From: Chloroflexota bacterium
GTDB lineage: Bacteria; Chloroflexota; Dehalococcoidia; SM23-28-2; JACOUE01
Assembly (NCBI GenBank): GCA_016178045.1
Contig: JACOUE010000041.1
Span: 5,627 to 69,626, forward strand
Length of the DNA stretch: 64,000 nucleotides
Reading direction: 5' to 3'
A program made the translations under genes and the position numbers. Below are positions 5,307-53,602 of the stretch, piece by piece. Position 1 is the first letter of the stretch; every line of letters starts with the position of its first letter. Under the pieces are notes generated by a model. The model had not been told where the DNA came from. It made no database searches and saw nothing but the letters and a program-made list of their open reading frames with translations.

Positions 5307-5750
5307 ATGAAGCGCCCCCAGCCCTACTGGGAAGACGTGCAGGTCGGCGACGATCTGCCCGGGTTCGAGCTGGAGATAAACGCCAAGCGCGTCTTCCTCC
5401 AGATCAGCGGCTCCCAGGACTGGTACCCCGTCCACCACGACCCCGAGTTCGCCCGCGAAGCCGGCCACCAGGACGTCTTCATGAACACGGGCCTCACCCA
5501 GGCCGCCTTGGTCCGCGTTGTCACCGACTGGATGGGCGACGAGGGCTTCCTCCGCAAGTTCTACTTCGAGATGCGCCGTCAGCATCGCCCCGGCGACGTC
5601 ATGGCCTGCAAAGGACGTGTCGCCGACAAGTACGTCCAGGACGCGCGCCATTTCGTGGAGTGCGAGGTGTGGGCCGAGAACGAGAGGGAGGGGGTGACTA
5701 CGCCGGGCCGGGCCTGGGTCATCCTCCCCTCACGGGAGGAGGCTGCCTAG
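5307..5750 (+). CDS. MaoC-family dehydratase
   Basis: WEDVQVGD, DWYPVHHDPEFA motif. Confidence 0.88.
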   Translation: MKRPQPYWEDVQVGDDLPGFELEINAKRVFLQISGSQDWYPVHHDPEFAREAGHQDVFMNTGLTQAALVRVVTDWMGDEGFLRKFYFEMRRQHRPGDVMACKGRVADKYVQDARHFVECEVWAENEREGVTTPGRAWVILPSREEAA

Positions 5751-9642: not shown

Positions 9643-11149
9643 ATGCTCCGGATCTTCAACACCCTCACGCGCTGTAAGGAGCAGTTCGAGCCCCTGGAGG
9701 CGGGGCACGTCGGCATGTACACCTGCGGGCCGACGGTGTACCGCTTCGCCCACATCGGTAACCTGCGGTCGTACCTGCTCGCGGACTGGCTGCGGCGGAC
9801 CCTCGAGGGGCAGGGCTACCGGGTGACCCACGTCAAGAACATCACCGATGTGGGCCACATGCGCCAGGACATGCTGGACCGGGGCGAGGACAAGGTCATC
9901 GCCGCCGCCCGGGCCGAGGGCAAGACGCCGCAGGAGATCGCCCAGTTCTACACCGACGCCTTCATGCAGGACGAGGCCAGGCTCCAGGTGCTCCCTGCCC
10001 ATATCTTCCCCCGCGCCACCGATAACGTCTCCGAGATGGTAGACCTGACGCGGACCCTCTTCGAAAAGGGGTTCGCCTACGAGCGACGGGGCAACGTCTA
10101 CTTCGAGGTCGAGCGCTTTCCGGAGTACGGCAAGCTCTCCGGCCAGGTGGGGGAGGGCCTCGCCGAGGGGATGCGGGCCGCAGCCGACCCCCTGAAGAAG
10201 AGCCAGCGCGACTTCGCCCTCTGGAAGGCCGCCGAGCCGGGGCGGCTGCTGAAGTGGCCGTCCCCTTGGGGCGACGGCTTTCCCGGCTGGCACATCGAGT
10301 GCTCAGCCATGTCTCGCAAGTACCTGGGACAGCAGATCGACATCCACACCGGCGGCGTCGACAACGTCTTCCCCCACCACGAGGACGAGATCGCTCAGAG
10401 CGAGGCCGCCTTCGGCAAGCCGTTCGTGGGCTACTGGGTGCACGGCCAGCACCTCCTGGTGGACGGCCTGAAGATGGCCAAGTCCACCGGCAACACCTAC
10501 ACCCTGGAGGACCTGGAGCGACGCGGTTTCGAGCCGCTGGCCTTCCGCTACCTCTGTGCCACCGTCCACTACCGCTCGCGCATGAACTTCACCTTCCGCT
10601 CGCTGGCGGCCGCCCAGCGGGGGCTCCTCCGCCTCCGCGGGCACGCCCAGGCGGCGGACGGCAGCGTGGCGAAGCGGGCGTCGCGCGAAGCGGATCGCTG
10701 GCGCAAGGGCTTCCAGGCCGCCCTGAACGACGACCTGAACCTCCCCCGCGCCCTGGCCGCCGCCTGGCAGGTGGCCCGCGACAGCCTGCCCGCTCCCCTC
10801 AAGCGCGAGCTCCTCCTGGAGTTCGACCGGGTGCTGGGGCTCGACCTCGACCGCAGGCCGGAACTGCCGTCTCTCCCTGCGGAGGTGGAGCGCCTGGCCG
10901 CCGAGCGCACCAGGCTCCGGCGCGGCGGCGACTACGCCCGCGCGGACGAGCTACGCGCCCGCGTCATCGCCGCTGGCTTCGAGGTGCGGGATGGCCGGGA
11001 CGCCGCGCTGATCCTGCCCGCGCCCGCCTGGGCCCGGCCCTCGGCCGTCATCTCGTCGAGTCAAGACGTACCGTCGCGGTTGGAGGAGCCGGCGGCGCTG
11101 GAGTGGACGGTTGTCCTCGTCGCCCGCGAGGACCGCGCGGAGGCGGAAC
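9643..11149 (+). CDS. cysS: Cysteine--tRNA ligase followed by a linker into a glycosyltransferase domain (frame breaks near 11149; the uncorrected frame reads on to 11757)
   Basis: MLRIFNTL, CGPTVY..AHIGN, DFALWK, GWHIECS, HHEDE, KMAKS, ADELR anticodon-binding region. Confidence 0.9.
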
Positions 11150-11686
11150 AAGCGGGTCCGGGTCTTCCACGCCGACCACAACCTGGGCGCGGCCGCCGCT
11201 CGCAACGTGGGGCTGCGCCAGGCCCGCGGCCAGATGCTGGTACTGTTGGACAGCAGCGTCGAGGTAACGGGCGACGCGTTCTCGAGCCTAGGAGGGCTAC
11301 TGTCGGAAGGCCGCGTGGGCGTTGCCGGCCGCTGGGGCCTGGTGACGTCCGACCTGCGCAGCTTCGACGAGACGGAGCAGCCGGGCGAGGTGGATGCCAT
11401 CGAGGGCTACATCATCGCCCTGCGGCGGGAGCTGGTGAGGGAAGTCGGTCTCCTGGACGAGAAGTACCGCTTCTACCGCCACCTCGACCTCGACCTGAGC
11501 TTCGCCGTGCGCAGCCGCGGCTACCGGCTCGTCATCGATACGGACCTGCCCCTTGCCCGCCACCAGCACGGGGAGTGGGAGCGAACCCCGCCGGAGGAGC
11601 GCGACCGCCTGAGCAAGCGGAACTTCTACCGCTTCCTGCGCAAGTGGGGCGACCGCACCGACCTCCTGCTGGCCGGGGCGCGGTAG
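11111..11686 (+). pseudogene. GT2 glycosyltransferase C-terminal part, out of frame with cysS
   Basis: NLGAAAARNVGL, LLDSS, GLLDEKY, DLDLSF motifs; first strand WTVVLVA lies in the cysS frame and the intervening segment seems missing. Confidence 0.75.
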
Positions 11687-11687
11687 G

Positions 11688-13133
11688 TTACCCCAGCGCC
11701 CCCAGATCCACGGCCATCTGCCAGATCTCGTCGGGGGTGAAGAAGGTAGTACGGTAGTTCGCCCAGCGGTCGGCGGCGGCGTCGTACTCGCCGTCGTAGG
11801 CGACCTGGACGCGGTCGTATATCTCCTTGACCACGCGGCTGACGCTGGAGAAGCGAACCGTGAGGTCGCGCCGCTCCGCCTCCCGGTTCAGGATCGAGAC
11901 GATCCCCTCCGCGCCGGACAAAGCGCCGATGACGCTGCGTTCGGCTTCTTCCTGCCCCACGATGGACGGGTCGTAGGGGAGGTAGATGAGGCCGCCGGGG
12001 GCCTGCTCCTGCTTCACCACGCCGGCCTGGTGGATCCCTGCCTGCGTGGTGAACACGTCGCCAACGATGGGCGCGTTGTGGGGGACGGGGGCCAGGAACT
12101 CCTCAAAGAGACGGCCCATCTCCCCCAGGCAGGTCAGCTCGAGGCCGGGGTCGCCGTAGAGACGGATGTAGCCGGCGAGCACCTGCTCCAGCGAGGTGTT
12201 GCCGGTGCGCTCGCCGATGCCGGCAAAGGTGACGTTGACCTTCTTGCAGCCGTACTGCCAGGCGGCTAGGGCGTTGGCGGTGGCCAGGCCGAAGTCGTTG
12301 TGGCCGTGAAACTCCAGCTCCGCGCCCGTCTCCTGCTTGAGGGTCGATACCAGGCGGGGGACGCCGTAGGGAAGGGCGGCGAAAGGATCGGGCACGCCCC
12401 AGCCGATGGTGTCGCAGATGCGGAACTTGGCCATGCCCTCGGTCGCCTCGAGCACCTCCTGCATGAAGGGGATCACCCACCCCTCGACGTCGGCGCGGGT
12501 GGTGTCCTCCAGGTGGACGCGGGGGGTGATGCCGTACTCGCAGGCGGTGAGGATGGGCCGGAGGTACTTGTCGACGGCGTCCTCTTTGCTGTGGAAGCCC
12601 AGCTTGTCGAAGATGTGGTGGTCGGACGACGAGGCGAGCATCCCCGTCTCCTTGACGCGGCCTTGGCTGGCGTCGTGCAGGTCCTTCACGTCCTTGGGAT
12701 TGGCGCGGATCCAGGTGGTGATCTTGGGGAACTCGTGCTCGCGGTCCAGGAGCTTGTCGAGCACCCACAGGTCGCGCTTCTGGTAGATGAACGTCTCGAT
12801 CGAGTACATGACGCCGGTGCCCGCGTCCAGGTCGTGGAGGAGGTCGACGTAGCGGAGGCGGGCCTCGCTGGGGAAGAGGGGGAAGCGGGAGTCCTGGGCG
12901 CCGTCGCGGAGCGTGGTGTCGGTGATGAGCTTGGGGAGGTCCTCCGGGCCCTCCAAGGGTAGCTCGGCGGGCTCCAGTTCCAGCTCGATGTGAGGGAACT
13001 GGCCCTGGAAGTTATGGTAGACGCGCGCCGGGTTTACGGCGGCCCTGGGGATAGTCGGCGGTTCCATGACGGTGAACTCGACGTAAGGCGTGTTAATTGT
13101 AGCAAAGCGTATCGGATTTGTTATAGCTGCCAT
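11688..13133 (-). CDS. DRE-TIM metallolyase, Re-citrate synthase-like (LeuA/homocitrate synthase family)
   Basis: ITDTTLRDGAQ, TWIRA, KETGML..SDHHIF, PRVHLEDTTRAD, HGHNDFG, GIGERTGN. Confidence 0.8.
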   Translation of the reverse strand: MAAITNPIRFATINTPYVEFTVMEPPTIPRAAVNPARVYHNFQGQFPHIELELEPAELPLEGPEDLPKLITDTTLRDGAQDSRFPLFPSEARLRYVDLLHDLDAGTGVMYSIETFIYQKRDLWVLDKLLDREHEFPKITTWIRANPKDVKDLHDASQGRVKETGMLASSSDHHIFDKLGFHSKEDAVDKYLRPILTACEYGITPRVHLEDTTRADVEGWVIPFMQEVLEATEGMAKFRICDTIGWGVPDPFAALPYGVPRLVSTLKQETGAELEFHGHNDFGLATANALAAWQYGCKKVNVTFAGIGERTGNTSLEQVLAGYIRLYGDPGLELTCLGEMGRLFEEFLAPVPHNAPIVGDVFTTQAGIHQAGVVKQEQAPGGLIYLPYDPSIVGQEEAERSVIGALSGAEGIVSILNREAERRDLTVRFSSVSRVVKEIYDRVQVAYDGEYDAAADRWANYRTTFFTPDEIWQMAVDLGALG

Positions 13134-43469: not shown

Positions 43470-43698
43470 GCCGCCCCCTTTGTCCTGAGATGCCATAAGC
43501 CTATCGCCGCGGGCGATACGCTGTCAATTTGGGGGAGGTCTGCCACCGGCGGGACGGATAACCGGGGCCGTTGTCCCCGGTGTCTGAGGCGATAGCCTCA
43601 GGGGTGGGTGGGGCGAACTACGCAGCGTTCCGTTGACGCCCCCGCCGGCCCCTAATAAGATACGGGCAGCCCAGCACACCGCCAGGAGGAGCCCCGCC

Positions 43699-44832
43699 GT
43701 GAGGATCACCCAGGTCAAGGTCCGCCTCTTCGAGTGCCCCATGCCCCAGCCCTTCCATCCCACCTGGCAGCCCCTTGCCGCTACTTCGTCGCGGATCCAC
43801 GTGGTCGAGGTCCACACGGACGAGGGCATCGTCGGCATCGGCTCGGGGGGCGTGCCGGTGCGCTGGGAGGTGGCGGGGCTGTTCCTGATGGGGCAGGACC
43901 CGTTCGCCATCGAGCAGCACGTGGCGAACCTGCGCTCCATGGCCTTCTTCGTGGGGAGGCCCTGGCCGGTTGAGGTGGCGCTCTGGGACATCATCGGTAA
44001 GGCGACGGGCCAGCCCGTCTACCGTCTCCTCGGCGGCGGCGCCGACCGCCTCAAGGCGTACGCCTCCACCGGCGAGCTGCGGTCGCTGGAGGCGCGGGTC
44101 GAGTCGGTCGAGCAGATCAAGGCGGAAGGGTTCCGGGCCGTCAAGCTGCGCTTCCACAGCGCCGACATCCGCGAGGACGTAAAGACGCTGGAGGCGGTGC
44201 GCAAGGCCGTCGGCGACGACATGGACATCATGGTCGACGCCAACTGGGGCTGGCGCATCGCCCCGGACCGGCAGCCGAACCGCTGGGACCTGAATACGGC
44301 CATAGCCGCCGCCAGGGAGATGGAGCGCCTGGGCGTGTACTGGCTGGAGGAGCCGCTCGACGCCTACGACTACGACGGCCTGGCCGAGATGCGGCGGCAC
44401 CTGACCACGCTCCGCCTGGCCGGCAGCGAGCTGAACCGCGGGCCGGAGGAGGTCCGCATCTACTTGGAGAAGGGCTGCTTCGACGTGTACCAGCCCGATT
44501 GCACGTTCATCGGCGGCATCTCGACGGCGCGCCAGATCGCGGCGATGGTGGAGACTGCGGGCAAGACCTTCACGCCCCACACCTGGACGAACGGCATCGG
44601 CCTGGTGGCGAACCTCCACGTGGCCGCCGCCGTCGACCGCGTGCCGTACATCGAGTTCCCCTACGACCCGCCCAACTGGACGCCGGAGTTTCGCGATTTC
44701 GTGTTCAGCGAGCCGCTCAACATCGACCCCGAGGGCTACGTGCACGTGCCCCAGAAGCCGGGCCTGGGGATCGAGCTGGACGAGGAGAAGCTGAAGCAGT
44801 ACGAGCAGGCGGACACGCGCCGACTGATCTGA
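43699..44832 (+). CDS. Mandelate racemase/muconate lactonizing enzyme family
   Basis: ALWDIIGK, KLR, MVDAN, WLEEP, QPD, PH. Confidence 0.9.
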   Translation: MRITQVKVRLFECPMPQPFHPTWQPLAATSSRIHVVEVHTDEGIVGIGSGGVPVRWEVAGLFLMGQDPFAIEQHVANLRSMAFFVGRPWPVEVALWDIIGKATGQPVYRLLGGGADRLKAYASTGELRSLEARVESVEQIKAEGFRAVKLRFHSADIREDVKTLEAVRKAVGDDMDIMVDANWGWRIAPDRQPNRWDLNTAIAAAREMERLGVYWLEEPLDAYDYDGLAEMRRHLTTLRLAGSELNRGPEEVRIYLEKGCFDVYQPDCTFIGGISTARQIAAMVETAGKTFTPHTWTNGIGLVANLHVAAAVDRVPYIEFPYDPPNWTPEFRDFVFSEPLNIDPEGYVHVPQKPGLGIELDEEKLKQYEQADTRRLI

Positions 44833-44846
44833 GGGAAGGAGCAGTC

Positions 44847-45215
44847 ATGGTTACCACCCAGGGGATCGTCGAGGGTTACGGCGGCGCCTGGAACGAGACC
44901 GATGAGGGCGCCCGCCGCCGCCTGCTGGAGAAGTGCTGGGCCGACGGCGGCACCTACACCGACCCCCAGTCGCACGCCGAGGGGCGCGACGCGCTCTCGG
45001 CCCTCATCGGCGGCTTTCAGCAGCAGATGCCGGGCGCCCGCATCGAGGCGACCAGCGGCGCCGACGTCCACCACAATGTCCTTCGCTTCACCTGGAAGCT
45101 TCTGGGCCCCCAGGGCAACACGGTCATGGAAGGGGTGGACTTCGGGGAGCTGGACGGCGACGGGCGAATAAAGCGAATCGTGGGCTTCTTCGGCCCGCCG
45201 CCGGCGGCTAGCTGA
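44847..45215 (+). CDS. SnoaL/NTF2-like protein
   Basis: AWNETD, YTDP, GVDF, IVGFFG; RBS AAGGAG. Confidence 0.85.
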   Translation: MVTTQGIVEGYGGAWNETDEGARRRLLEKCWADGGTYTDPQSHAEGRDALSALIGGFQQQMPGARIEATSGADVHHNVLRFTWKLLGPQGNTVMEGVDFGELDGDGRIKRIVGFFGPPPAAS

Positions 45216-45231
45216 TCCCGCCGAAGCCCGA

Positions 45232-45290
45232 TGTAGCGGAGGCCTTCAGGCCTCCACCTGCCGCTTGGAAGCCTCAAGGCTTCCGCTACA
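45232..45290. repeat. GTAG-type REP doublet
   Basis: TGTAGCGGAGGCCTTCAGGCCTCC...GGAAGCCTCAAGGCTTCCGCTACA; same architecture as 32782-32839. Confidence 0.75.
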
Positions 45291-45306
45291 TCCTCTGGCC
45301 CACAGC

Positions 45307-46014
45307 CTACGATATCCCCCCGAATCCCGCCGGCAGCCCGTCCAGGTGGGCGACGTCGTTCAGGCGCCAGATGATGCGCTTATCGCCCAGGGCGCGGATG
45401 GACGTGATGCTGGCGTTGAACGGGTAGAAGATGAAGTCCTGCGGCAGACCCAGCACCACGCTCACGTACGTCTGGATGACGCCGGCGTGGGCCACCACCG
45501 CCACCCGCTTCCCCCCGCACTCAGCGATGATGCGGTCGATGGCGGCGCTGATGCGCCGGCGGGCCGGCTCGCTGCCCTCGCCGCCGGGGAAGGCGTCCCA
45601 GCGGGCCTGGCGCAGTATCTGCTCCTTGACGTCGGCCAGGGCACCGCTGGCGATTGCGTCAAGGTCGGGCCTCGGCCCCAGGTAGACCTCGCGCAGGTCG
45701 TCCACCACCGTGACGGGCAGGCCCGCGGCCTCCGCGATGACCTCCGCCGTCTGCCGCGCCCGCCGGAAGGGGCTGCTGTACACGGCGTCGACCCCCTGGC
45801 GGCCCAGCCGCTCGGCCAGGCGGCGGGCCTGCTCGCGGCCCACCTCAGTGATCTGCGGGTCCGCCTCGTCGGTGGTCTCGCCGGTGTTGCTGGCAGACTG
45901 GGCGTGGCGGATCAGGTAGAGCCGCGTCGCCTCTGGCTGCCCGATGAGCAGGACGTCGCGGAAGTAGTAGGCGATAGGGTCGCCCGGCGGCTCCTGCTCG
46001 ACCTCTGGCGACAT
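45307..46014 (-). CDS. Histidine phosphatase family protein
   Basis: LIRHAQS, SSP..RA.QTA, VAHAG, LND..HL. Confidence 0.9.
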   Translation of the reverse strand: MSPEVEQEPPGDPIAYYFRDVLLIGQPEATRLYLIRHAQSASNTGETTDEADPQITEVGREQARRLAERLGRQGVDAVYSSPFRRARQTAEVIAEAAGLPVTVVDDLREVYLGPRPDLDAIASGALADVKEQILRQARWDAFPGGEGSEPARRRISAAIDRIIAECGGKRVAVVAHAGVIQTYVSVVLGLPQDFIFYPFNASITSIRALGDKRIIWRLNDVAHLDGLPAGFGGIS

Positions 46015-46108
46015 CTCAGCGGCAATAATAGGGCATCCGCCCCCGAAGCACCATCGGCCGCCTTGCCCGCTGCCACCATATACGGGAGAATGGCCTGCGA
46101 GGCCCCGC

Positions 46109-47206
46109 TTGGAGACCGGAGTCAGCTACTTCTCCTCCCGCACCCTCCGCCACGTCCGCGCCGACCTCGCCGACATCGTGGAGCACGGCTGCACCTACGT
46201 CGTCCACTGCTTCACGGAAACGGACCTCGCCTTCTACCTCGACACCGTCCGTGAGGTCGTCGCTGCCACGCGGGAGGCGGGCTTGGAGCCGTGGCTTGAC
46301 CCCTGGGGCCTCGCCGCCGTCTTCAGCGGCGAGTCGTTCACCCGCTTCCCCCTTGAGCACCCCGAAACGTGGCAGGTGCTCTCGGACGGGCGAAGGGTAG
46401 GCGCCGCCTGCCCGAACCACCCGGAGACCCGCCGCTTCCTCCGCCGGTGGGTCGAGGCGGCGGCGTCGGTGGGCGGGGAGGTGCTCTTCTGGGACGAGCC
46501 CCACTTCTACGTCGGCCTCTGGGGCGGCGACGTCTCGGGGGCGTGGGCCTGCCGCTGCGACGCCTGCCGCGCCCTATTTCGCGAGCGGCACGGCGAAGAG
46601 ATGCCCCTCGAGTTCACGCCGGAGGTCCGCGCCTTCCGCGAGTCCTCCCTGCTGGAGATGCTGACGGAGGCCTGCCGCTTCGGGCGAGAGAAGGGGCTGC
46701 GCAACGCTCTCTGCCTCCTCCCCACCGATCCGGGCGGGCACGGCTTCCCCCAGGTGGAGGAGAGACTGCGCTCGCTGGTGCAGCGCAGGCTGGGCGAGGG
46801 CGCTCCCCCGTCCGCCGTCCAGGCCCTCCTCCACGTCGGCGTCGGCGACTGGGACCGGGCCGCCGCCATCCCCGACCTCGACGTCTTCGGCTGCGATCCT
46901 TACTGGTACCTGTTCGGCGTGGAGGCGGAGCCCTTCATGCGGGTCTACGGAGGGAAGGCGGCGGAGGCGGCGCGACGCCACGCCCGCGGCCTCCAGCTGT
47001 GGGTGCAGGCGTTCCGCGTGCCCGAGGGGCGGGAGGAGGAGCTGCGCACGGGGCTGCGCGTGGCGGAGGAGCTGGGCGCGACCCACGTGGCGGCCTGGAG
47101 CTACGAGGCGACGGCCAGCATGTCGCAGATCCGCTGCGCCCGCCCGGACGTGGTGTGGCGGGTCCTGGGGAAGGAGTTCCGCCGGCTGCGGGCCGGCGCG
47201 CTCTAG
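46109..47206 (+). CDS. Hypothetical TIM-barrel, glycoside hydrolase-like protein
   Basis: GVSYF, LDPWG, FWDEPH, CRCDAC, DPYW, LWVQAF. Confidence 0.65.
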   Translation: METGVSYFSSRTLRHVRADLADIVEHGCTYVVHCFTETDLAFYLDTVREVVAATREAGLEPWLDPWGLAAVFSGESFTRFPLEHPETWQVLSDGRRVGAACPNHPETRRFLRRWVEAAASVGGEVLFWDEPHFYVGLWGGDVSGAWACRCDACRALFRERHGEEMPLEFTPEVRAFRESSLLEMLTEACRFGREKGLRNALCLLPTDPGGHGFPQVEERLRSLVQRRLGEGAPPSAVQALLHVGVGDWDRAAAIPDLDVFGCDPYWYLFGVEAEPFMRVYGGKAAEAARRHARGLQLWVQAFRVPEGREEELRTGLRVAEELGATHVAAWSYEATASMSQIRCARPDVVWRVLGKEFRRLRAGAL

Positions 47207-47274
47207 TTGCCTATACGGGCCGTCTTGGCCAGCGCGAACGTCACCGCGCAATGCGAGGAATTAGGTTTCAGAAC

Positions 47275-47949
47275 CTACCAGGCGAAGTCTCGCGTCCAGT
47301 TGAGGGTGTTGTCGTTTCGGGGCCGCAGGCAATCGTCGGACGATGTATGGTTAGCTGTGGGTGTGCAGTAATCTCCGTAGGTGCCCCCATTGAACTTCAC
47401 ATCAGGGTTAAGCTGCCGGTGGCCAGAACTCTTTTCGTGGATATGATAGCCGCTCCAGCCGGCGGCGCAGTTGCTGTCTCCTACCATGGTGGAGGCATAC
47501 CACCACGACCAGCCTGTGTAGAACCAGAATGAGAACCCGGGAAGATCAGTCTGGGTATGCACATATGTCATAGTGCCCTTGTACACGCCAAGACCGGAAT
47601 CCAGAATCTTGACGGACATGTAGTCGCATCCCAAGCCGTCGACCAGATTCCCCGTCCGATCACCCCTCAGCAAATCGCCGCTGCCGGCAAGGTCGAAGAC
47701 GTAACCCCGGAACTGTCCGTCCCGGTTATTCACATTGGTCCAGCTGTCCCAGTCGAGTCCCCCACCAGAGCTAGCGCCGCAGGCCCCATGATATTTGCAG
47801 TGAAGGTGGGCCTTATCGCCTTGATCGCCTGCGGGCGGGAACATGTTGACCTGAAAACGCGACGCCGCTGCAGCGGGGCTGTAAAGGGCTGCCAAGGTGC
47901 CAACCAATACGGCCAGAGAAACTGCTACAAGGACCTTAAACCAATCCAT
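47275..47949 (-). CDS. Secreted Cys-containing hypothetical protein (cassette 2, gene B)
   Basis: Signal peptide ending AAAA; six Cys; GC lower than flanks. Confidence 0.75.
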   Translation of the reverse strand: MDWFKVLVAVSLAVLVGTLAALYSPAAAASRFQVNMFPPAGDQGDKAHLHCKYHGACGASSGGGLDWDSWTNVNNRDGQFRGYVFDLAGSGDLLRGDRTGNLVDGLGCDYMSVKILDSGLGVYKGTMTYVHTQTDLPGFSFWFYTGWSWWYASTMVGDSNCAAGWSGYHIHEKSSGHRQLNPDVKFNGGTYGDYCTPTANHTSSDDCLRPRNDNTLNWTRDFAW

Positions 47950-48018
47950 GTCACAACCCCCAAGGTCTAGCTCCCGTTTGGCGGGACCGCCCCCGGGTTC
48001 GCCGAATATGTCTTTTGT

Positions 48019-48747
48019 TTATTGCAACGCCGGCGCGAGAGACTCGGCCACCTTCATTACCTCATCGAAAGAGACGACTTCAGCTTGGATAACCGTATAA
48101 CCGCCCGGCTCGGGGAAGATTACGTTTGTTACAGTCGCAACGGTTCCGCCTTCAGCGACGACGGGCTTGACGACGATAGCGGAACGCCCGCCAACAGAAA
48201 CTACCTGTACGCGGTCCGGCGGAGCATCAGTTTCACGCGAAGGACGGGGCTCTCTGACACGATTGATTAGGATCTGACCTTCTGCTCCCGCCGCCGCTCC
48301 GGGCAATTCATATAGCCGCCAGGCTGTATACAATTGACCGTTGTCGCGGCATATCGTAGCTCCGGGGTTGGGTGCGGTGTCCAGCGCGGCCTCGTACTCG
48401 GCCGGTTCTCTGGCTCCGGGTGGGAGGTATTTGGGCGCAGGCGGAGCGTATCCGCCCCCGGGAACCACATCGAGGCCGCCGGGACAAACTGTTCTAAGAT
48501 TGGTCTGGATACCTTTGGCCGCCAGGACTTCTGGGGGCCCAAGATAAATACCCAGCAGCTCGCCGTCGAATCGTGGTTTTGCCGCATCGATGGCTATCTC
48601 AGGGTGTTCTTCTTGCAACAACTGTGGGGAAGACGCCATGACGTCCAAAAGATAACGAACGCCGAAGAAAGCTGCCGCCGCTACGGCGAGCGGCGCGACC
48701 ATGAGCATTAGCTTCCGTGTCAACTGGTTTTCCCCGGAGGTGTGCAA
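48019..48747 (-). CDS. Membrane-anchored hypothetical protein (cassette 2, gene A)
   Basis: N-terminal TM LMVAPLAVAAAAFFGV; lower GC. Confidence 0.7.
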   Translation of the reverse strand: MHTSGENQLTRKLMLMVAPLAVAAAAFFGVRYLLDVMASSPQLLQEEHPEIAIDAAKPRFDGELLGIYLGPPEVLAAKGIQTNLRTVCPGGLDVVPGGGYAPPAPKYLPPGAREPAEYEAALDTAPNPGATICRDNGQLYTAWRLYELPGAAAGAEGQILINRVREPRPSRETDAPPDRVQVVSVGGRSAIVVKPVVAEGGTVATVTNVIFPEPGGYTVIQAEVVSFDEVMKVAESLAPALQ

Positions 48748-48783
48748 GACCGAATAGACGCCAGCGTATCGACGGACGGATAC

Positions 48784-48812
48784 AGTCTGCGCCCGTCACA
48801 ACACTTCGTCAA
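48784..48812 (-). promoter_or_regulatory. sigma70-like promoter of cassette 2
   Basis: TTGACG-17 nt-CAGACT; homologous to 49930-49958. Confidence 0.6.
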
Positions 48813-48853
48813 GGGGTTTTCTTTGAAAAAGTTATGAAGGTACTCGAAAGTCG

Positions 48854-48880
48854 AGATTCTTCGCTTCGCTCAGAATGACA
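48854..48880. repeat. REP-like half element
   Basis: AGATTCTTCGCTTCGCTCAGAATGACA, reverse complement of the unit at 23817 and 25155. Confidence 0.75.
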
Positions 48881-48910
48881 GAGGGCCTGGGCGCAATGAC
48901 AGGGTCAGGC

Positions 48911-48955
48911 CTACCCCCGCGGCAGGCCCAGGCCGCGCATGGCGATGATGTTCCG
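48911..48955. repeat. 45-bp exact direct repeat of the 3' end of the acyl-CoA dehydrogenase gene (50077-50121)
   Basis: CTACCCCCGCGGCAGGCCCAGGCCGCGCATGGCGATGATGTTCCG identical at both sites. Confidence 0.95.
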
Positions 48956-49407
48956 GTTGTCCAACGGTAGTCTGCGAAGTCGAGCCATACCTCCGCGCCG
49001 TTGAGGTAGTAGCCGTCATTCGTGCTGCTCCAGTACCGATATGGGCCAAACTTTACGCACGCCACCTGTGCCGGGGCACATTCGTCTCCGGTCGTGTCCT
49101 TCCTGATGGACACATCAACAACGTTGCAGTTCTGCGACCACTCACTGCCTGGGAGGATCGGCCCCCACTTGGCCCTGACATCGTCGTCGAATAGTGTGTT
49201 ATTGTAGGGGCACCAATACATCGGAGCGCCTGCAAGAGCCCACCAGCCAATAACATACGTTTCGTTACCGCGGTCCTTCGCCAAATAAACTCTGTGATCC
49301 GCTTCGGCCAGAGAGGTTATGGTCAAGCTCAATAGCGCCGCCACGCCGGCAGCCAGTACGAGAACCGCCCAGCGACTCACGCGATACCCCCAATCTAAGG
49401 CTGGCAA
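48956..49407 (-). pseudogene. Truncated secreted Cys-containing protein (cassette 1, gene B)
   Basis: Signal peptide ...SLAEA; after DYRWTT the ORF runs out of frame into the 45-bp repeat and REP sequence. Confidence 0.7.
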
Positions 49408-49446
49408 TATCCGTAGCCACGAGGGGCAGCAGGAGGCGCCAGCGGC

Positions 49447-49920
49447 TCACGGGGCGCTGTTTTCAATTAGCTGAAAATCCTCTTCATCTTCAGGGTCTAC
49501 CTTCCACAGGACGACTTTTCCCGTGTCGGCATCAAGCCACACGCGCGACCTTCCACGTTCGATTTCCCAGTAGTGGGTCGGCCACGGAGACTGGACTCCA
49601 GGCGCAGGTTCGCCGATGACCTCGAATATCGTCGCACCCTTGGGCAGCAGTATAGTTCGGGGGCCTATGTCAATCTCGATTGGTTCCGGTACCGGCTCGC
49701 TGAGGAAGATTCCTCGCTCCCTCAAATAGGCCTCCGCCTCCTCGCGCGTCAGCCTGACGGGCGGTTCCGGGGACGGGGCTGGGGGCTCGAAGGAGGGTGG
49801 CGTGGGCAGTGGTGGTGGCGGTTCTTCGCCTGTCGCCAGGTTCACTCCCCACCAGATCCCCGCAGCAACCCCTGCCGCCACCACCAGGCCAAGAGCGTTT
49901 CGCAGGGAAATACCGGCCAT
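49447..49920 (-). CDS. Membrane-anchored Pro-rich hypothetical protein (cassette 1, gene A)
   Basis: N-terminal TM then PPPPLPTPP linker. Confidence 0.75.
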   Translation of the reverse strand: MAGISLRNALGLVVAAGVAAGIWWGVNLATGEEPPPPLPTPPSFEPPAPSPEPPVRLTREEAEAYLRERGIFLSEPVPEPIEIDIGPRTILLPKGATIFEVIGEPAPGVQSPWPTHYWEIERGRSRVWLDADTGKVVLWKVDPEDEEDFQLIENSAP

Positions 49921-49929
49921 GGCGGCCGC

Positions 49930-49958
49930 ATTATGCTCCCGTCACAATACGTTGTCAA
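49930..49958 (-). promoter_or_regulatory. sigma70 promoter of cassette 1 (near-leaderless mRNA)
   Basis: TTGACA-17 nt-CATAAT, 9 nt before ATG 49920. Confidence 0.7.
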
Positions 49959-50016
49959 GGGGTTTTAGAACAGCTTGTCATGAAATCTTGCGAACAATGG
50001 CAGAGTGTCTGCAAAA

Positions 50017-50071
50017 CCTGTCATTGCTTCGCTTCGCCTGCCTGCCAGGCAGACGGGCTCGCACTGACAGG
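50017..50071. repeat. REP-like element with nested palindrome
   Basis: CCTGTCA...CTTCGCTTC[GCCTGCCTGCCAGGCAGACGG]GCTCGCACTGACAGG. Confidence 0.6.
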
Positions 50072-50076
50072 CGGGG

Positions 50077-51270
50077 CTACCCCCGCGGCAGGCCCAGGCC
50101 GCGCATGGCGATGATGTTCCGCATCACCTCCGACGTGCCGGCGGCGATGGTCGTGGCCACCGAGGCGACGTAGTAGTCGGCGATGCGCCCGGCCAGGGGC
50201 GCCCAGCGGCTCCCCGGCTTGAGCTGCCCGCCCAGGCCCAGGACCTCGATGCCCGCCCGCGCCAGCCGCTGCTGCAGCTCCGAGCCGTAAAGCTTGGAGA
50301 TGGACGCCTCCGCGTTGGGGATCCGTCCCTGCGACTGGAGCCAGGCGACGCGGTAGGCGAGCAGGCGGCCGGCGTGGAACTCGATGTGTAGCTCCGCCAG
50401 CTTGTTGCGGAGGGGCTCGCGGTCGATGATGCGGCCGCCGTCGCGCGCCGTCTCCCGCGAGTAGGCGACCAGCTCCTCGTAGGTGCGGAAGCCGGCCACG
50501 ACGCGGTTGATGCCGGACCGCTCGAAGTCCAGGGTGGCGGCGGCCACGTACCAGCCGCGGTTCAGCTCGCCGACCAGGCAGTCGCGGGGGACGCGGACGT
50601 TGTCGAAGAAGACCTGGTTGAACGTCTGGCGGCCGGTCATGTCGGCCAGGGGCTGGATGGTGATGCCCGGCGTCTTCATGTCGAGGAGGAAGTAGCTGAT
50701 CCCCTTGTGCTTGGGGGCGTCGGGATCGGTGCGAGCGAGCAGGATCATCCAGTCGGCGACGTTGGCCAGCGACGTCCAGATCTTCTGGCCGTTGACCACG
50801 AAGTAGTCGCCCTCGGCCACCGCCGCCGTCTGGAGGGAGGCGAGGTCGGAGCCCGAGCCGGGCTCGCTGAACCCCTGGCACCAGATCACCTCGGCGCCGG
50901 CGATGGCTGGCAGGTGCCGCCCCTTCTGCTCCTCGTTGCCGAAGACGATGATCGTCGGCCCCACCCGGTCCGGGCCCACGCCCAACTGCTGGGGGGCGCG
51001 GTGGTAGGCCATCTCCTCGTTGTAGATGAGCTGGTTCATGTGGCCCGCGGCCAGGCCCCCGTGCTCCTTGGGCCAGGCCAAGGTCAGCCACCCCTTGCGG
51101 GCGAGCTTCTTCTGGAAGCTCCGCATCTCCTCGAAGCCGCGGCCGCCGCCGTAGCCGAGCGGGCTCTCGGCGCCGGCGCCTTCCGTGACCTCCTGCGGCC
51201 ACTCGCCGCGGACGAACCCGCGTACCTCCCGGCGGAAGGCGTCCTCTTCGGGGGAAAAGCGGAACTCCAT
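50077..51270 (-). CDS. Acyl-CoA dehydrogenase
   Basis: WCQGFSEPGSGSDLASL, NGQKIWTS, TIAAGTSEVMRNIIA..GLGLPR. Confidence 0.92.
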   Translation of the reverse strand: MEFRFSPEEDAFRREVRGFVRGEWPQEVTEGAGAESPLGYGGGRGFEEMRSFQKKLARKGWLTLAWPKEHGGLAAGHMNQLIYNEEMAYHRAPQQLGVGPDRVGPTIIVFGNEEQKGRHLPAIAGAEVIWCQGFSEPGSGSDLASLQTAAVAEGDYFVVNGQKIWTSLANVADWMILLARTDPDAPKHKGISYFLLDMKTPGITIQPLADMTGRQTFNQVFFDNVRVPRDCLVGELNRGWYVAAATLDFERSGINRVVAGFRTYEELVAYSRETARDGGRIIDREPLRNKLAELHIEFHAGRLLAYRVAWLQSQGRIPNAEASISKLYGSELQQRLARAGIEVLGLGGQLKPGSRWAPLAGRIADYYVASVATTIAAGTSEVMRNIIAMRGLGLPRG

Positions 51271-51323
51271 CGACTCTCCTGACGTGGACGGCAGGCGCTT
51301 CGGGCGCCGACCAGTATATACTG

Positions 51324-51890
51324 TTGGCAACCAGCGCGAAAGCTGGCCGCCGTACCCCTGCTCGTTCTCCTCCTGGTCGCCTGCCTGGGTTAGGAGGGGG
51401 GAGCCACGGCGTCCGCTGGGCCGACCGCGACAAACTGGCCGTCCGTGGGGTGCGCGGCCTCCGCTTCGGCTTCCTCGCCTTCCACTGGGGTGCGGAGTAC
51501 GTGTCGGTGCCGCAGTCAGCGGAGGGGATCGCCCCCGACGACCCGGTGGAGATCGCCCACCTGGCCGTGGACGCCGGCGCCGACTTTATCATCGGCAACC
51601 ACCCGCACTGGGTGCAGGCGGTGGAGCTGTACAGGGGCAAGCTGATCGTCTACGCCCACGGCAACTACATCTTCGACCAGATGTGGAGCTACGAGACGCG
51701 GGTGGGGGTCATCGGTCTCTACACGTTCTACGACGATAAGCTGGTTCGGGTGGAGTTCATCCCCACCATCATCGAGGACTATGCCCAGCCGCGGCTGCTG
51801 TCGGCCGGAGAGGCGGGTGGTCCTGGACGGGATGAAGGCGGCCAGCCGCGAGCTGGCGGCGAGTCTCTCGCCGTGATCAGCGCCCCTTGA
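51324..51890 (+). pseudogene. Degenerate CapA/PgsA-family metallophosphatase
   Basis: HWGAEY, GAD.IIGNHPHWVQ, GNYIFDQ retained; N-terminal half missing, FGFLAF joined directly to HWG; lipoprotein-like remnant PLLVLLLVAC in another frame. Confidence 0.75.
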
Positions 51891-52762: not shown

Positions 52763-53602
52763 CTACAGCATGGCGACGCCGCCGTCCACGTTGATGCACT
52801 GCCCCGTGATGTAGTCCGCCCGCGGCGAGACCAGGAACGCCACCACCGCCGCGATCTCCGACGGGTCGGCCTGCCGCCCCAATGGGATGAACCGGCTCAC
52901 CCCCTGCTTCACCATCTCGAAGGGGATGCCCATCCGCTCGCCGGTGCGGCGGAAGGTGCCGTCCATCATGTCGGTGTCGGTGGAGCCGGGGGCGACGCAG
53001 TTCACGTTCACTTTGTACGGCGCGAGCTCCAGCGCCAGCATCTGGGTGAGGCCCACCACGCCGAACTTGCTGGGGGTGTACGCCCCGTAGCGGGCCTGGC
53101 CCAGACGCCCCGCCATCGACGACAGGTTGACGATCTTTCCGCCCTCGCCCTGCCGGATGAGCACCTCGGCCACCGCCTTGCAGCAGTGATAGACGCCGTT
53201 CAGGTTCACGTCCACCTCGCGCGACCACTCGTCGTCCTCCAGCTCCCAGAGGGCCTTCTTCCCGGCCACCAGGGCCAGCCCGGCGTTGTTCGCCAGGATA
53301 TCGATCCGGCCCAGCTCCTCCAGCGTCTTGTCCACCATCGCCCGCACCTGCGCACCGTCGGTAACGTCGACATCCAGCGCCAGCGCCCGCCGGCCGAGCG
53401 CCCGGATCTCCTCCGCCACCGACTCGGCGCCGCGCCAGCCGGCCTGCCGCTCGGCCTCGGGGAACCGCTCCTGCGGGCGGGCGACGGCGGTGACGGCGAC
53501 GTCGGCGCCGACTTGGGCCAGGCGCAGGGCGATGGCGCGGCCGATGCCGCGCAGGCGCCCCGCGCCGGTCACGATGGCTACTTTACCGTCGAGCTGCCCC
53601 AT
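52763..53602 (-). CDS. SDR oxidoreductase
   Basis: TGAG..RGIG, NNAG, YTPSK, VDGG. Confidence 0.92.
   Translation of the reverse strand: MGQLDGKVAIVTGAGRLRGIGRAIALRLAQVGADVAVTAVARPQERFPEAERQAGWRGAESVAEEIRALGRRALALDVDVTDGAQVRAMVDKTLEELGRIDILANNAGLALVAGKKALWELEDDEWSREVDVNLNGVYHCCKAVAEVLIRQGEGGKIVNLSSMAGRLGQARYGAYTPSKFGVVGLTQMLALELAPYKVNVNCVAPGSTDTDMMDGTFRRTGERMGIPFEMVKQGVSRFIPLGRQADPSEIAAVVAFLVSPRADYITGQCINVDGGVAML

Follow-up and report, generated by a model that had tools for sequence, protein, structure and literature searches.

We analyzed a 64,000-nt stretch of DNA (hereafter the window; positions 5,627 to 69,626 of contig JACOUE010000041.1, assembly GCA_016178045.1) from a Chloroflexota bacterium of the class Dehalococcoidia, and focused on two small gene pairs lying in tandem behind a gene for an acyl-CoA dehydrogenase (ACAD). 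The genome bin comprises 2.03 Mb in 85 contigs and is 89.8% complete, with the window placed on a contig of 109.5 kb. The sequencing runs containing the stretch are groundwater metagenomes, and the nearest relatives as judged by ACAD are metagenome-assembled genomes (MAGs) of Dehalococcoidia/Chloroflexota. Read on the minus strand, the order is ACAD, a first intergenic region (IGR1), a gene for an anchored protein (A1), a gene for a secreted protein (B1), a stub of ACAD, a second intergenic region (IGR2), and a second pair (A2 and B2); a TIM-barrel-like gene on the plus strand and a phosphatase gene on the minus strand come next. We call cassette 1 the unit with A1 and B1, and cassette 2 the unit with A2 and B2. 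Their features are as follows, in window positions; transmembrane segments and signal peptides of the A and B proteins were called by eye on the translations.

50077..51270, minus strand: ACAD, 397 aa from its ATG, a core gene with a GC content at third codon positions (GC3) of 0.975
50074..50121, minus strand: repeat copy R1, made of the last 14 ACAD codons and TAG, plus 3 nt
50016..50072, minus strand: hairpin of IGR1 resembling a repetitive extragenic palindrome (REP), followed by UUUU, likely the ACAD terminator
49929..49966, minus strand: promoter block, copy 1, with TTGACA (49958-49953), a 17-nt spacer and CATAAT (49935-49930)
49447..49920, minus strand: A1, 157 aa, with an N-terminal hydrophobic anchor, a Pro-rich linker and a small C-terminal domain; intact
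48956..49380, minus strand: B1-delta, a secreted zincin-like gene reduced to its first 142 codons by a cut at 48956|48955
48908..48955, minus strand: repeat copy R2, a displaced ACAD 3' stub that does not code for ACAD here
48852..48881, minus strand: IGR2 element, REP-like and of a second type (30-nt core), with 11 further near-identical copies in the assembly (12 in total)
48783..48820, minus strand: promoter block, copy 2, with TTGACG, a 17-nt spacer and CAGACT
48019..48708, minus strand: A2, 229 aa (a TTG start at 48747 is possible), with an N-terminal anchor and an extracytoplasmic domain; intact
47275..47949, minus strand: B2, 224 aa, with a signal peptide and a Cys-rich zinc peptidase domain resembling LasA and beta-lytic protease (M23A-like); intact

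A preliminary description of this DNA had listed an exact copy of the 45-bp ACAD end 1166 bp away from the original, a REP-like element, a promoter block and the A and B genes, all of which are indeed present where it had placed them. It had also seen no resemblance between the two cargo pairs and a GC content below that of the flanks, and both observations hold. BLASTP gives no similarity for A1 with A2 or for B1 with B2 (best E 0.088 and 5.8, respectively). The GC content is 0.57-0.62 in A1, B1, A2, and B2 versus 0.71-0.73 in the flanking genes, and GC3 is 0.58-0.69 versus 0.94-0.98 in the ACAD, TIM-like, and phosphatase genes. The cargo thus looks foreign by composition. None of the four genes has a family in Pfam, NCBIfam, or PADLOC. 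The integrase reported as missing from the window is also missing from its surroundings, as no tyrosine or serine recombinase gene occurs on the whole 109.5-kb contig. This absence does not extend to the genome: the assembly has four matches to PF00589 (tyrosine recombinases) and one weak match to PF00239 (serine recombinases), every one of them on other contigs.

A duplicated gene end next to a truncated gene

The two repeat copies R1 and R2 bound cassette 1. They are identical at 47 of 48 positions, start 1166 nt apart, and have the same first 45 nt, i.e., 14 ACAD codons and TAG. The DNA that follows them is far less similar, with 74 identities in 123 aligned positions and 24 gap columns (147 alignment columns; Fisher p 1e-7 against the identity of the stub). 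We searched the assembly for a third copy that would close cassette 2, allowing up to 10 mismatches, and found none: the search returned the two copies and the ends of three ACAD paralogues on contig C22 (at 41888, 23903, and 18811). These ends differ from the repeat by 2, 7, and 7 of 48 positions, the C-terminal motif of ACAD being conserved at the nucleotide level across these paralogues. Since the paralogues end nearly identically, the sequence of the stub marks "an ACAD end", with a best fit to the neighboring gene by one base only. The assignment of ACAD itself is clear, as it matches the Pfam domains Acyl-CoA_dh_N/M/1 (E 1.5e-15 to 1.2e-29) and has orthologues that are 76-82% identical in Dehalococcoidia MAGs and in metagenomes.

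The border between B1 and R2 holds a truncation that the preliminary description had passed over. The only homologue of B1 in the order, in genome G007, is 316 aa long, aligns only over residues 2-139/141, and runs on past the B1 cut directly into HEFGHGVGLGERYH. The motif HE[FIL]GHxxG[LI]x[ED]xY lies past the cut point in all four full-length homologues; in the three besides that of G007, it reads HE[IL]GHxxG[LI]x[ED]xY downstream of the equivalent point. We found no homologous proteins of about the length of B1, and its missing half was found nowhere else in the assembly. The open frame of B1 continues into R2, in a frame different from that of ACAD, and into REP DNA up to 48832. It stops before the motif, and B1 in the window has no HExxH. 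The copy of B1 in the window is thus a truncated gene with a dead enzyme. Because it ends exactly where R2 begins while its homologues continue, 48956|48955 is an illegitimate joint that links B1, cut midway, to the position 45 nt before the ACAD stop (ACAD -45). Such a joint is therefore required in any model of the locus.

The family to which B1 belongs is rare, being present in 5 of 401 genomes of the class. Its full-length members match no Pfam family, the homologue in G007 has no match in NCBIfam or PADLOC, and the comparison with the PDB gave a snake-venom metalloproteinase at E 0.65 only. Given the HExxH motif, we read the family as small secreted zincins. We also queried viral contigs with the G007 homologue and with B2, and this search, which reaches close relatives only, returned nothing. 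As for A1, a PepSY-like C-terminus was considered and dropped, since it has no Pfam support at E<=0.1.

The junction in two groundwater samples

The preliminary description had allowed that the junction at 48955/48956 might be the work of the assembler. We looked for it in the Logan k=31 contigs of runs X1 and X2, two samples of the same study. In X1, perhaps the sample from which the genome came, a contig of 1181 nt (record 3; 48926-50106) goes from 30 nt inside R2 through B1, A1, and IGR1 to 30 nt inside R1 at a depth of 11.2, and an 87-nt contig joins R2 to IGR2 at a depth of 8.4. In X2, record 12 (48926-49108) contains the junction between B1 and R2 at a depth of 3.4. Hence, the junction of B1 with the stub is real DNA in two samples. 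The bare 45-mer has a depth of 17 in X1, against 8.3 for the body of ACAD, 10.1 for cassette 2, and 11.2 for cassette 1, and is thus present in about two copies per genome. A third run, X3, yielded only scraps of the stretch at a depth of 2-4, making its missing coverage of cassette 1 uninformative.

Contigs built with k=31 cannot phase a repeat of 45 nt, and the order through it rests on the original assembly and on depth. With a metagenome bin of 85 contigs, one might thus suspect that two strain alleles, ACAD-A1-B1 and ACAD-A2-B2, were joined through the 45-mer, or that the unit of 1166 bp exists as a circle of its own or as a tandem of several copies. Yet joining two intact alleles cannot produce the junction of B1 codon 142 with the stub, which both samples contain. 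Both cassettes and the flanks also have similar depths (8.3-11.2), with a value about twice as high for the 45-mer, which argues against an artefact as well. Moreover, a repeat of 48 nt is shorter than ordinary reads and could presumably be spanned by the original assembler. We consider an artefact of assembly very unlikely.

Intergenic elements of the two cassettes

The hairpin of IGR1 has a predicted fold of -34.6 kcal/mol (z -4.43), which none of 200 shuffled sequences equalled. Because of this strong fold and the UUUU that follows, it probably terminates ACAD. Two further copies of this type, with 91% identity, are on contigs C84 and C12, for a total of three. Taken together, the further copies of this type and of the second type, to which the element of IGR2 belongs, sit on contigs C84, C62, C61, C48, C22, C78, C68, C69, C32, and C12. 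These elements have the traits of REP sequences: they are dispersed, intergenic, and able to form hairpins, in a genome that has genes resembling Y1 transposases (five Y1_Tnp matches elsewhere in the assembly). A permissive Rfam scan of 46500-51500 gave no match.

The promoter block precedes the A gene of each cassette. The promoter of cassette 1, TTGACA-17-CATAAT, matches the sigma-70 consensus at 11 of 12 positions, and the start codon of A1 lies around 10 nt past the -10 box. The two copies of the block are identical at 32 of 38 positions, and the heads of the two cassettes can be aligned over ~200 nt. The block had been proposed as a promoter shared by the cassettes, and the search for more copies strengthens this view: with up to 8 mismatches allowed, the 2.03-Mb assembly contains only these two. 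A 25-nt core pattern of the block (up to 2 mismatches) occurs in one of 65 genomes of the order, which is the genome itself, and in none of the 64 others. We did not find the block upstream of A homologues elsewhere. It is therefore private to this locus among the genomes searched.

These similarities could be taken as traces of an old local tandem duplication of the ACAD end, the intergenic region, A, and part of B, with the cargo diverging or being replaced in one copy afterwards. This would account for the tandem layout with the same order of parts and for the alignable heads. It fits badly with A1 and A2, or B1 and B2, being unrelated and each having its own homologues elsewhere. In addition, a stub conserved at 47 of 48 positions next to non-coding DNA at about 60% identity with indels is unexpected for neutral copies of equal age. 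We find such a history hardly credible.

The site behind ACAD in related loci

To compare the locus with its relatives, we used two scans with the ACAD protein, one of metagenomes and one of genomes, with 80 loci each (160 in total). None of the 160 loci has a homologue of A or B behind ACAD. In 16 of them (13 from metagenomes, several being near-duplicates, and 3 from genomes; ACAD 66-82% identical), the site is empty, with the phosphatase gene starting 15-60 nt after the ACAD stop. In 6 of the 80 genome loci (L136, L137, L143, L158, L163, and L166; ACAD 67-69% and TIM-like protein 63-75% identical), a gap, the TIM-like gene, and the phosphatase gene follow ACAD, the same order that the window has. 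This gap measures 591-2463 nt in the six loci, is of ordinary GC content, and holds a conserved gene for a 189-aa multi-pass membrane protein along with 0-2 DinB-like genes, i.e., in variable copy number. The genes at the far side of the interval in the window are the following.

46109..47206, plus strand: TIM-barrel-like gene, convergent with B2, with native codon usage (GC3 0.94) and a weak match to AP_endonuc_2
45307..46014, minus strand: histidine-phosphatase-like gene, the far border of the lineage-specific interval 46015-50076

The TIM-like gene is found at this place in some relatives only, being absent from the 16 empty sites, and it has no match in NCBIfam. Since 16 loci are empty and 6 hold other genes, the interval behind ACAD is variable in the clade, with A-B islets that are private to this genome among the loci searched. 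The preliminary description had gone further and proposed a hypervariable slot in which different cargo would be found between the same flanks. In its strict form this proposal is not supported, given that none of the 160 related ACAD loci carries A or B.

The gene pairs in other Dehalococcoidia

The view of A and B as modules, also proposed before, is borne out away from ACAD, because both types of pairs recur as pairs in other Dehalococcoidia. In 5 of the 6 relatives' loci examined, a B2-like gene has an A2-like gene directly upstream; for B1-like genes, an A1-like gene is upstream in 2 of 4 loci. One of the latter is in G007, where the 157-aa product of the gene upstream of the B1 homologue is 34% identical to A1 over its full length. 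The pairs are 3-16 GC points below the flanking genes in all four relatives checked. They are conserved units.

Some of these islets are flanked by repeats. In G012 (L014 678-2954), an A2-B2-like pair is enclosed by two tRNA-Arg(TCG) genes whose 3' parts are identical over 63 nt. This islet of 2.2 kb has no room for an integrase, and its B2-like gene is split into two open reading frames (ORFs) while the A2-like gene is whole, an arrangement that fits the idea of a toxin and its immunity protein. In G182 (L191 6202-8190, the same as L106 208-2196), an A1-B1-like pair with a GC content of 0.49 lies between perfect 25-nt direct repeats. The frame of its B1-like gene reads through the second 25-mer, and a gene for a XerC-like tyrosine recombinase is found 105 nt beyond, next to topA. 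We found no flanking repeats of at least 18 nt within ~5 kb in five other loci.

We also scanned the whole assembly for local repeats and obtained 14 pairs. One of them, on contig C24 of the genome under study (G000; 10962-13033, the same as L189 2463-4534), is a perfect direct repeat of 53 nt made of the last 31 nt of a dnaE-type polymerase gene and 22 further nt. The repeats flank an insert of 1966 nt with a GC content of 0.574, against 0.66-0.70 in the flanks, which carries a GmrSD (type IV restriction) gene on the opposite strand. There is no recombinase inside this insert. Its layout is the same as that found at the ACAD end.

A predicted peptidase fold for B2

Only two close homologues of B2 were found among 5.8 billion clustered proteins. 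A profile search revealed a family of 262 representatives, mostly of 205-245 aa. In an alignment of 137 sequences, H54, D66, H131, and C161 are invariant, and C51, C57, R81, C108, H169, and H171 are nearly so. The AF2 model made from these 137 sequences has a pLDDT of 90.2; a model made from six sequences (pLDDT 49.7) was discarded. The ESM Atlas gave no usable match for B2, and its profile found no PDB chain. Using the model, the best PDB matches by Foldseek are 6IK4 (pseudoalterin), 3IT5 (LasA), and 8AF1 (beta-lytic protease, Blp), with E 1e-3 to 4e-3. In a second look (VIA), with matches spanning the entire mature domain, the Z scores were 10.0 for LasA, 9.6 for Blp, and 9.6 for pseudoalterin. 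Its rows 1-42 are all M23/LytM domains (Z 10.0 to 4.6), and the following row has a Z of 2.7. The predicted structure thus has the beta-sheet fold of M23/LytM domains.

The residues of the family are in line with this fold. The M23 pattern H-x(n)-D, H, H-x-H is conserved, which gives the order of the residues in the sequence and not the geometry of a site. The zinc ligands described for Blp are His22, Asp36, and His123 (PMC9783410). H54, D66, and H169xH171 of B2 follow the same order as these ligands, with a first His that is likewise widely spaced from the Asp. Residues 32-216 of the model align with chain residues 3-181 of LasA (3IT5), Blp (8AF1), and pseudoalterin (6IK4), with 142-144 residues aligned at a root-mean-square deviation of 4.2-4.5 A. 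B2 shares with these M23A enzymes the order H..D..H..HxH, the secretion, and the presence of Cys. It differs from them by an identity of 12-14%, by the lack of a Pfam M23 match, and by the lack of a propeptide, in place of which there is a conserved neighboring gene for a membrane-anchored protein. The large N-terminal propeptide of M23A pre-pro-enzymes is absent, as the match to the fold starts at residue 32, right after a helix at 3-22.

From the model, we read B2 as a divergent, propeptide-less M23A-like zinc peptidase, which is probably cell-wall lytic. The earlier idea that B is a secreted, effector-like enzyme thus agrees with the predicted fold of B2 and with the HExxH of the B1 family. 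An additional lectin domain of the ricin-B type is present in three of the 137 family members (best E 6e-40), in keeping with an enzyme that is secreted and directed at glycans.

A2 has seven homologues besides itself, with 29-68% identity. A narrower A2 alignment, searched against the genome contigs, found no relative. The one lead to its function, a resemblance to DUF4367 proteins in the ESM Atlas (score 0.92), was not adopted, none of 10 family members having a Pfam match. Because the B2 fold lacks the propeptide that such enzymes normally need, A2 is a candidate trans-acting factor. It would be the conserved partner of B2, as an inhibitor, an immunity protein, or a folding helper. More generally, the A-B pairs may play the toxin/immunity or enzyme/chaperone role that was suggested from their layout.

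How the two cassettes may have been stacked

The internal stub of ACAD abutting a truncated B1 bears out the earlier suggestion that the cassettes were stacked by recombination at the gene end. A dedicated mechanism that swaps cassettes, which had been suggested as well, is another matter: the contig has no integrase, no third repeat follows cassette 2, and one of the two cassettes is broken. The locus looks like a recombination scar, and not like a dedicated cassette machine. Integron gene cassettes were also considered and rejected, because the contig lacks an integrase, both cassettes come with a promoter block of their own, and the repeat is the end of a gene and not an imperfect palindrome.

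We give about even chances to a history in which a recircularised fragment of a sister allele was integrated by one crossover in the gene end, or by homology-facilitated illegitimate recombination (HFIR), stacking a defective cassette before an intact one. The interval behind ACAD would then hold two horizontally acquired two-gene islets, each with an anchored A and a secreted zinc peptidase B, under sigma-70-type promoters that would belong to the ACAD locus itself. The resident islet A2-B2 is intact, and A1-B1-delta would have arrived later. The donor would be a sister strain in which the same ACAD end and promoter were followed by A1-B1, and its fragment would start 45 nt ahead of the ACAD stop and end midway through B1. 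The two ends would have been closed by an illegitimate joint between B1 codon 142 and ACAD -45. The circle would then have integrated by a single homologous crossover inside the 45 nt, or equivalently by HFIR, giving R1-IGR1-A1-B1-delta-R2 ahead of an untouched A2-B2. A single event could in this way explain the duplicated gene end, the undisturbed resident islet, the intact A1 under the stronger promoter, and the dead B1.

Several observations are consistent with this history, from which we infer the donor allele, the order of events, the route of recombination, and the role of A. The locus has one homologous and one illegitimate junction, since B1 codon 142 abuts ACAD -45 and the anchor of 45-48 nt is duplicated. 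The identity of the stub (47/48), when set against that of the DNA after it (74/123 and 24 gaps), suggests that the stub still worked as a gene end until recently and that the intergenic regions had already diverged in different strains. Both stubs precede the same locus-private promoter block, which argues for incoming DNA from an allele of the same locus. The lack of a recombinase on the contig and of a third repeat also supports it. Such events are described in E. coli, where 56 of 60 recombinants obtained with one-ended homology had duplicated part of the homologous segment (PMC3240628). These duplications were explained by the single crossover of a recircularised, partly degraded molecule, and 4 of the 60 were classical HFIR (PMC3240628). 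Stacking of the HFIR type, in which old modules and a 3' gene stub are shifted backwards, has also been proposed for type VI secretion system (T6SS) effector-immunity arrays of Vibrio (PMC5361080).

Other observations weigh against this history or against parts of it. The donor allele (ACAD-IGR1-A1-full B1) was not found in the 160 related loci. A homology of 45 nt is short for a RecA-type crossover. Direct repeats around small low-GC islets recur (53 nt at dnaE, 63 nt in G012, and the 25-mer in G182); since site-specific integrases classically leave a duplicated tRNA 3' end behind, these repeats may share a cause in a recombinase that acts in trans. A 1166-bp circle together with a chromosome carrying only cassette 2 would give the same contig graph, but equal depths, and an original assembler presumably able to span 48 nt, make this unlikely. 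Concerning the products of the islets, PF01551 matches none of the 137 members of the B2 family at E<=0.01, and hhalign of B2 against the three M23 domains of the genome aligned 10 columns, covering the HxH stretch only, with a probability of 1.2%. Finally, the A2-like gene of G004 (L011 62-752) is in two frames (62-583 and 378-752), by a frameshift or an assembly error, next to an intact B2-like gene. A as an indispensable immunity protein therefore fits poorly with G004.

The main rival explanation is site-specific tandem accretion, in which the ACAD end is an attachment site and related islets devoid of integrases are added serially by a recombinase encoded elsewhere. The stub would be an attR/attL hybrid, and the promoter block the conserved att-proximal part of related elements akin to cis-mobilisable elements. 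Repeats of 3' ends do bound low-GC islets at ACAD (45-48 nt), at dnaE (53 nt), and at tRNA-Arg in G012 (63 nt), a 25-mer lies by a tyrosine recombinase gene in G182, and the four tyrosine recombinases and the weak serine recombinase match on other contigs could act in trans. Dehalococcoides itself has tandem, low-GC islands at ssrA, bounded by 20-bp repeats of the gene end, some of which are described as lacking an integration module (PMC3146451). Set against this, B1 is cut at the stub, so that the element would be a 1166-bp circle with a gene fragment, and an illegitimate joint would still be needed besides the site-specific step. Cassette 2 is not closed by a repeat, the 109.5-kb contig has no recombinase, and A homologues elsewhere lack the promoter block in front of them. 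Furthermore, the same families of modules are found at different targets (ACAD, tRNA-Arg, and an intergenic 25-mer), which argues against a site specificity linked to the module. On balance, we regard accretion as a serious alternative, though a less likely one.

A broader proposal would see in the A-B pairs a class of very small mobile modules of Dehalococcoidia, so far undescribed and devoid of integrases, that serve in competition and are made of an envelope-attacking secreted zinc peptidase and a membrane-anchored protector. These would insert behind the 3' ends of genes and tRNAs with duplications of 25-63 nt, and their stacking would leave orphan protectors (A1 and the A2-like gene of G012), as in T6SS immunity arrays but without the secretion machine. 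We think this improbable.

Comparison with known systems

If the cassettes were stacked from a recircularised fragment, the closest likeness would be with the insertions of this type, or of the HFIR type, in E. coli. Those described have one homologous anchor and one illegitimate joint, with the anchor partly duplicated on both sides, as in the ACAD scar (PMC3240628). In both cases no recombinase is needed and the insert is of ~1-2 kb (PMC3240628). The E. coli clones were sequenced and had anchors of 109-950 bp, unlike the ACAD scar, which is deduced from one natural genome and retains an anchor remnant of 45-48 nt (PMC3240628). Work on such recombination in Streptococcus, Acinetobacter, and Pseudomonas is cited in the same article (PMC3240628).

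The locus also resembles the displacement of T6SS modules described in Vibrio cholerae, where a new two-gene module of the competition type arrives behind a conserved upstream sequence and the older genes, with a 3' stub, are pushed downstream (PMC5361080). One partner left without the other is found in those arrays as well (PMC5361080), and the article cites the orphan arrays of Rhs and contact-dependent inhibition (CDI) loci (PMC5361080). Unlike the arrays described there, the ACAD locus has no T6SS, Rhs, or CDI gene, and its anchor is a housekeeping ACAD (PMC5361080). Here the incoming module would be the defective one and the resident the whole one, with one step of stacking only, in contrast to the Vibrio arrays described (PMC5361080).

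The third comparison is with the ssrA islands and cis-mobilisable elements of Dehalococcoides, a member of the same class. Like the ACAD islets, these are low-GC and arranged in tandem behind the 3' end of a gene, with direct repeats of this end separating them, and some ssrA islands have no integration genes (PMC3146451). The islands described measure several kb or more, many of them with a serine-recombinase module, and have the 20-bp repeat of the tmRNA gene at every boundary (PMC3146451). The ACAD units differ from them by their size of 1.2-1.7 kb, the absence of a recombinase nearby, and a protein gene as target; no repeat is present at their last boundary, and at one boundary a gene is cut (PMC3146451).

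Set beside these systems, the locus offers a clean natural example of how the streamlined genome of an uncultured groundwater Dehalococcoidia gains accessory genes with no mobile-element machinery in sight, the scar, i.e., the gene-end stub and the truncated gene, being the record of the acquisition. What is new here is the definition of two unannotated families of putative secreted zinc peptidases, both accompanied by a conserved partner that is anchored in the membrane, an M23A-like fold with no propeptide, and a hint of small repeat-flanked islets recurring at gene ends in the class. A family with this predicted fold and no propeptide makes its neighboring gene a candidate trans-acting inhibitor, immunity, or folding factor. 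If the repeat-flanked islets prove to be common in the class, they would help to trace gene flow in organisms beyond the reach of culture.

Other features of the neighborhood

The DNA around the interval also differs between relatives. We compared the window with locus L021 by tblastx, which is noisy in GC-rich DNA and served only for the gene order of this locus. Two regions of the window have no counterpart in L021: ~43500-45300, with a racemase-like gene and a small neighbor, and 52763-53602, with a short-chain dehydrogenase/reductase (SDR) gene. Because of these two regions, the neighborhood of ACAD holds several lineage-specific indels. Between ACAD and an enoyl-CoA hydratase gene, the plus strand has an ORF of 188 aa (51324-51890) that is conserved in the relatives' loci. 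It matches the PGA_cap profile over the last 62 of 255 positions only and may thus be a remnant.

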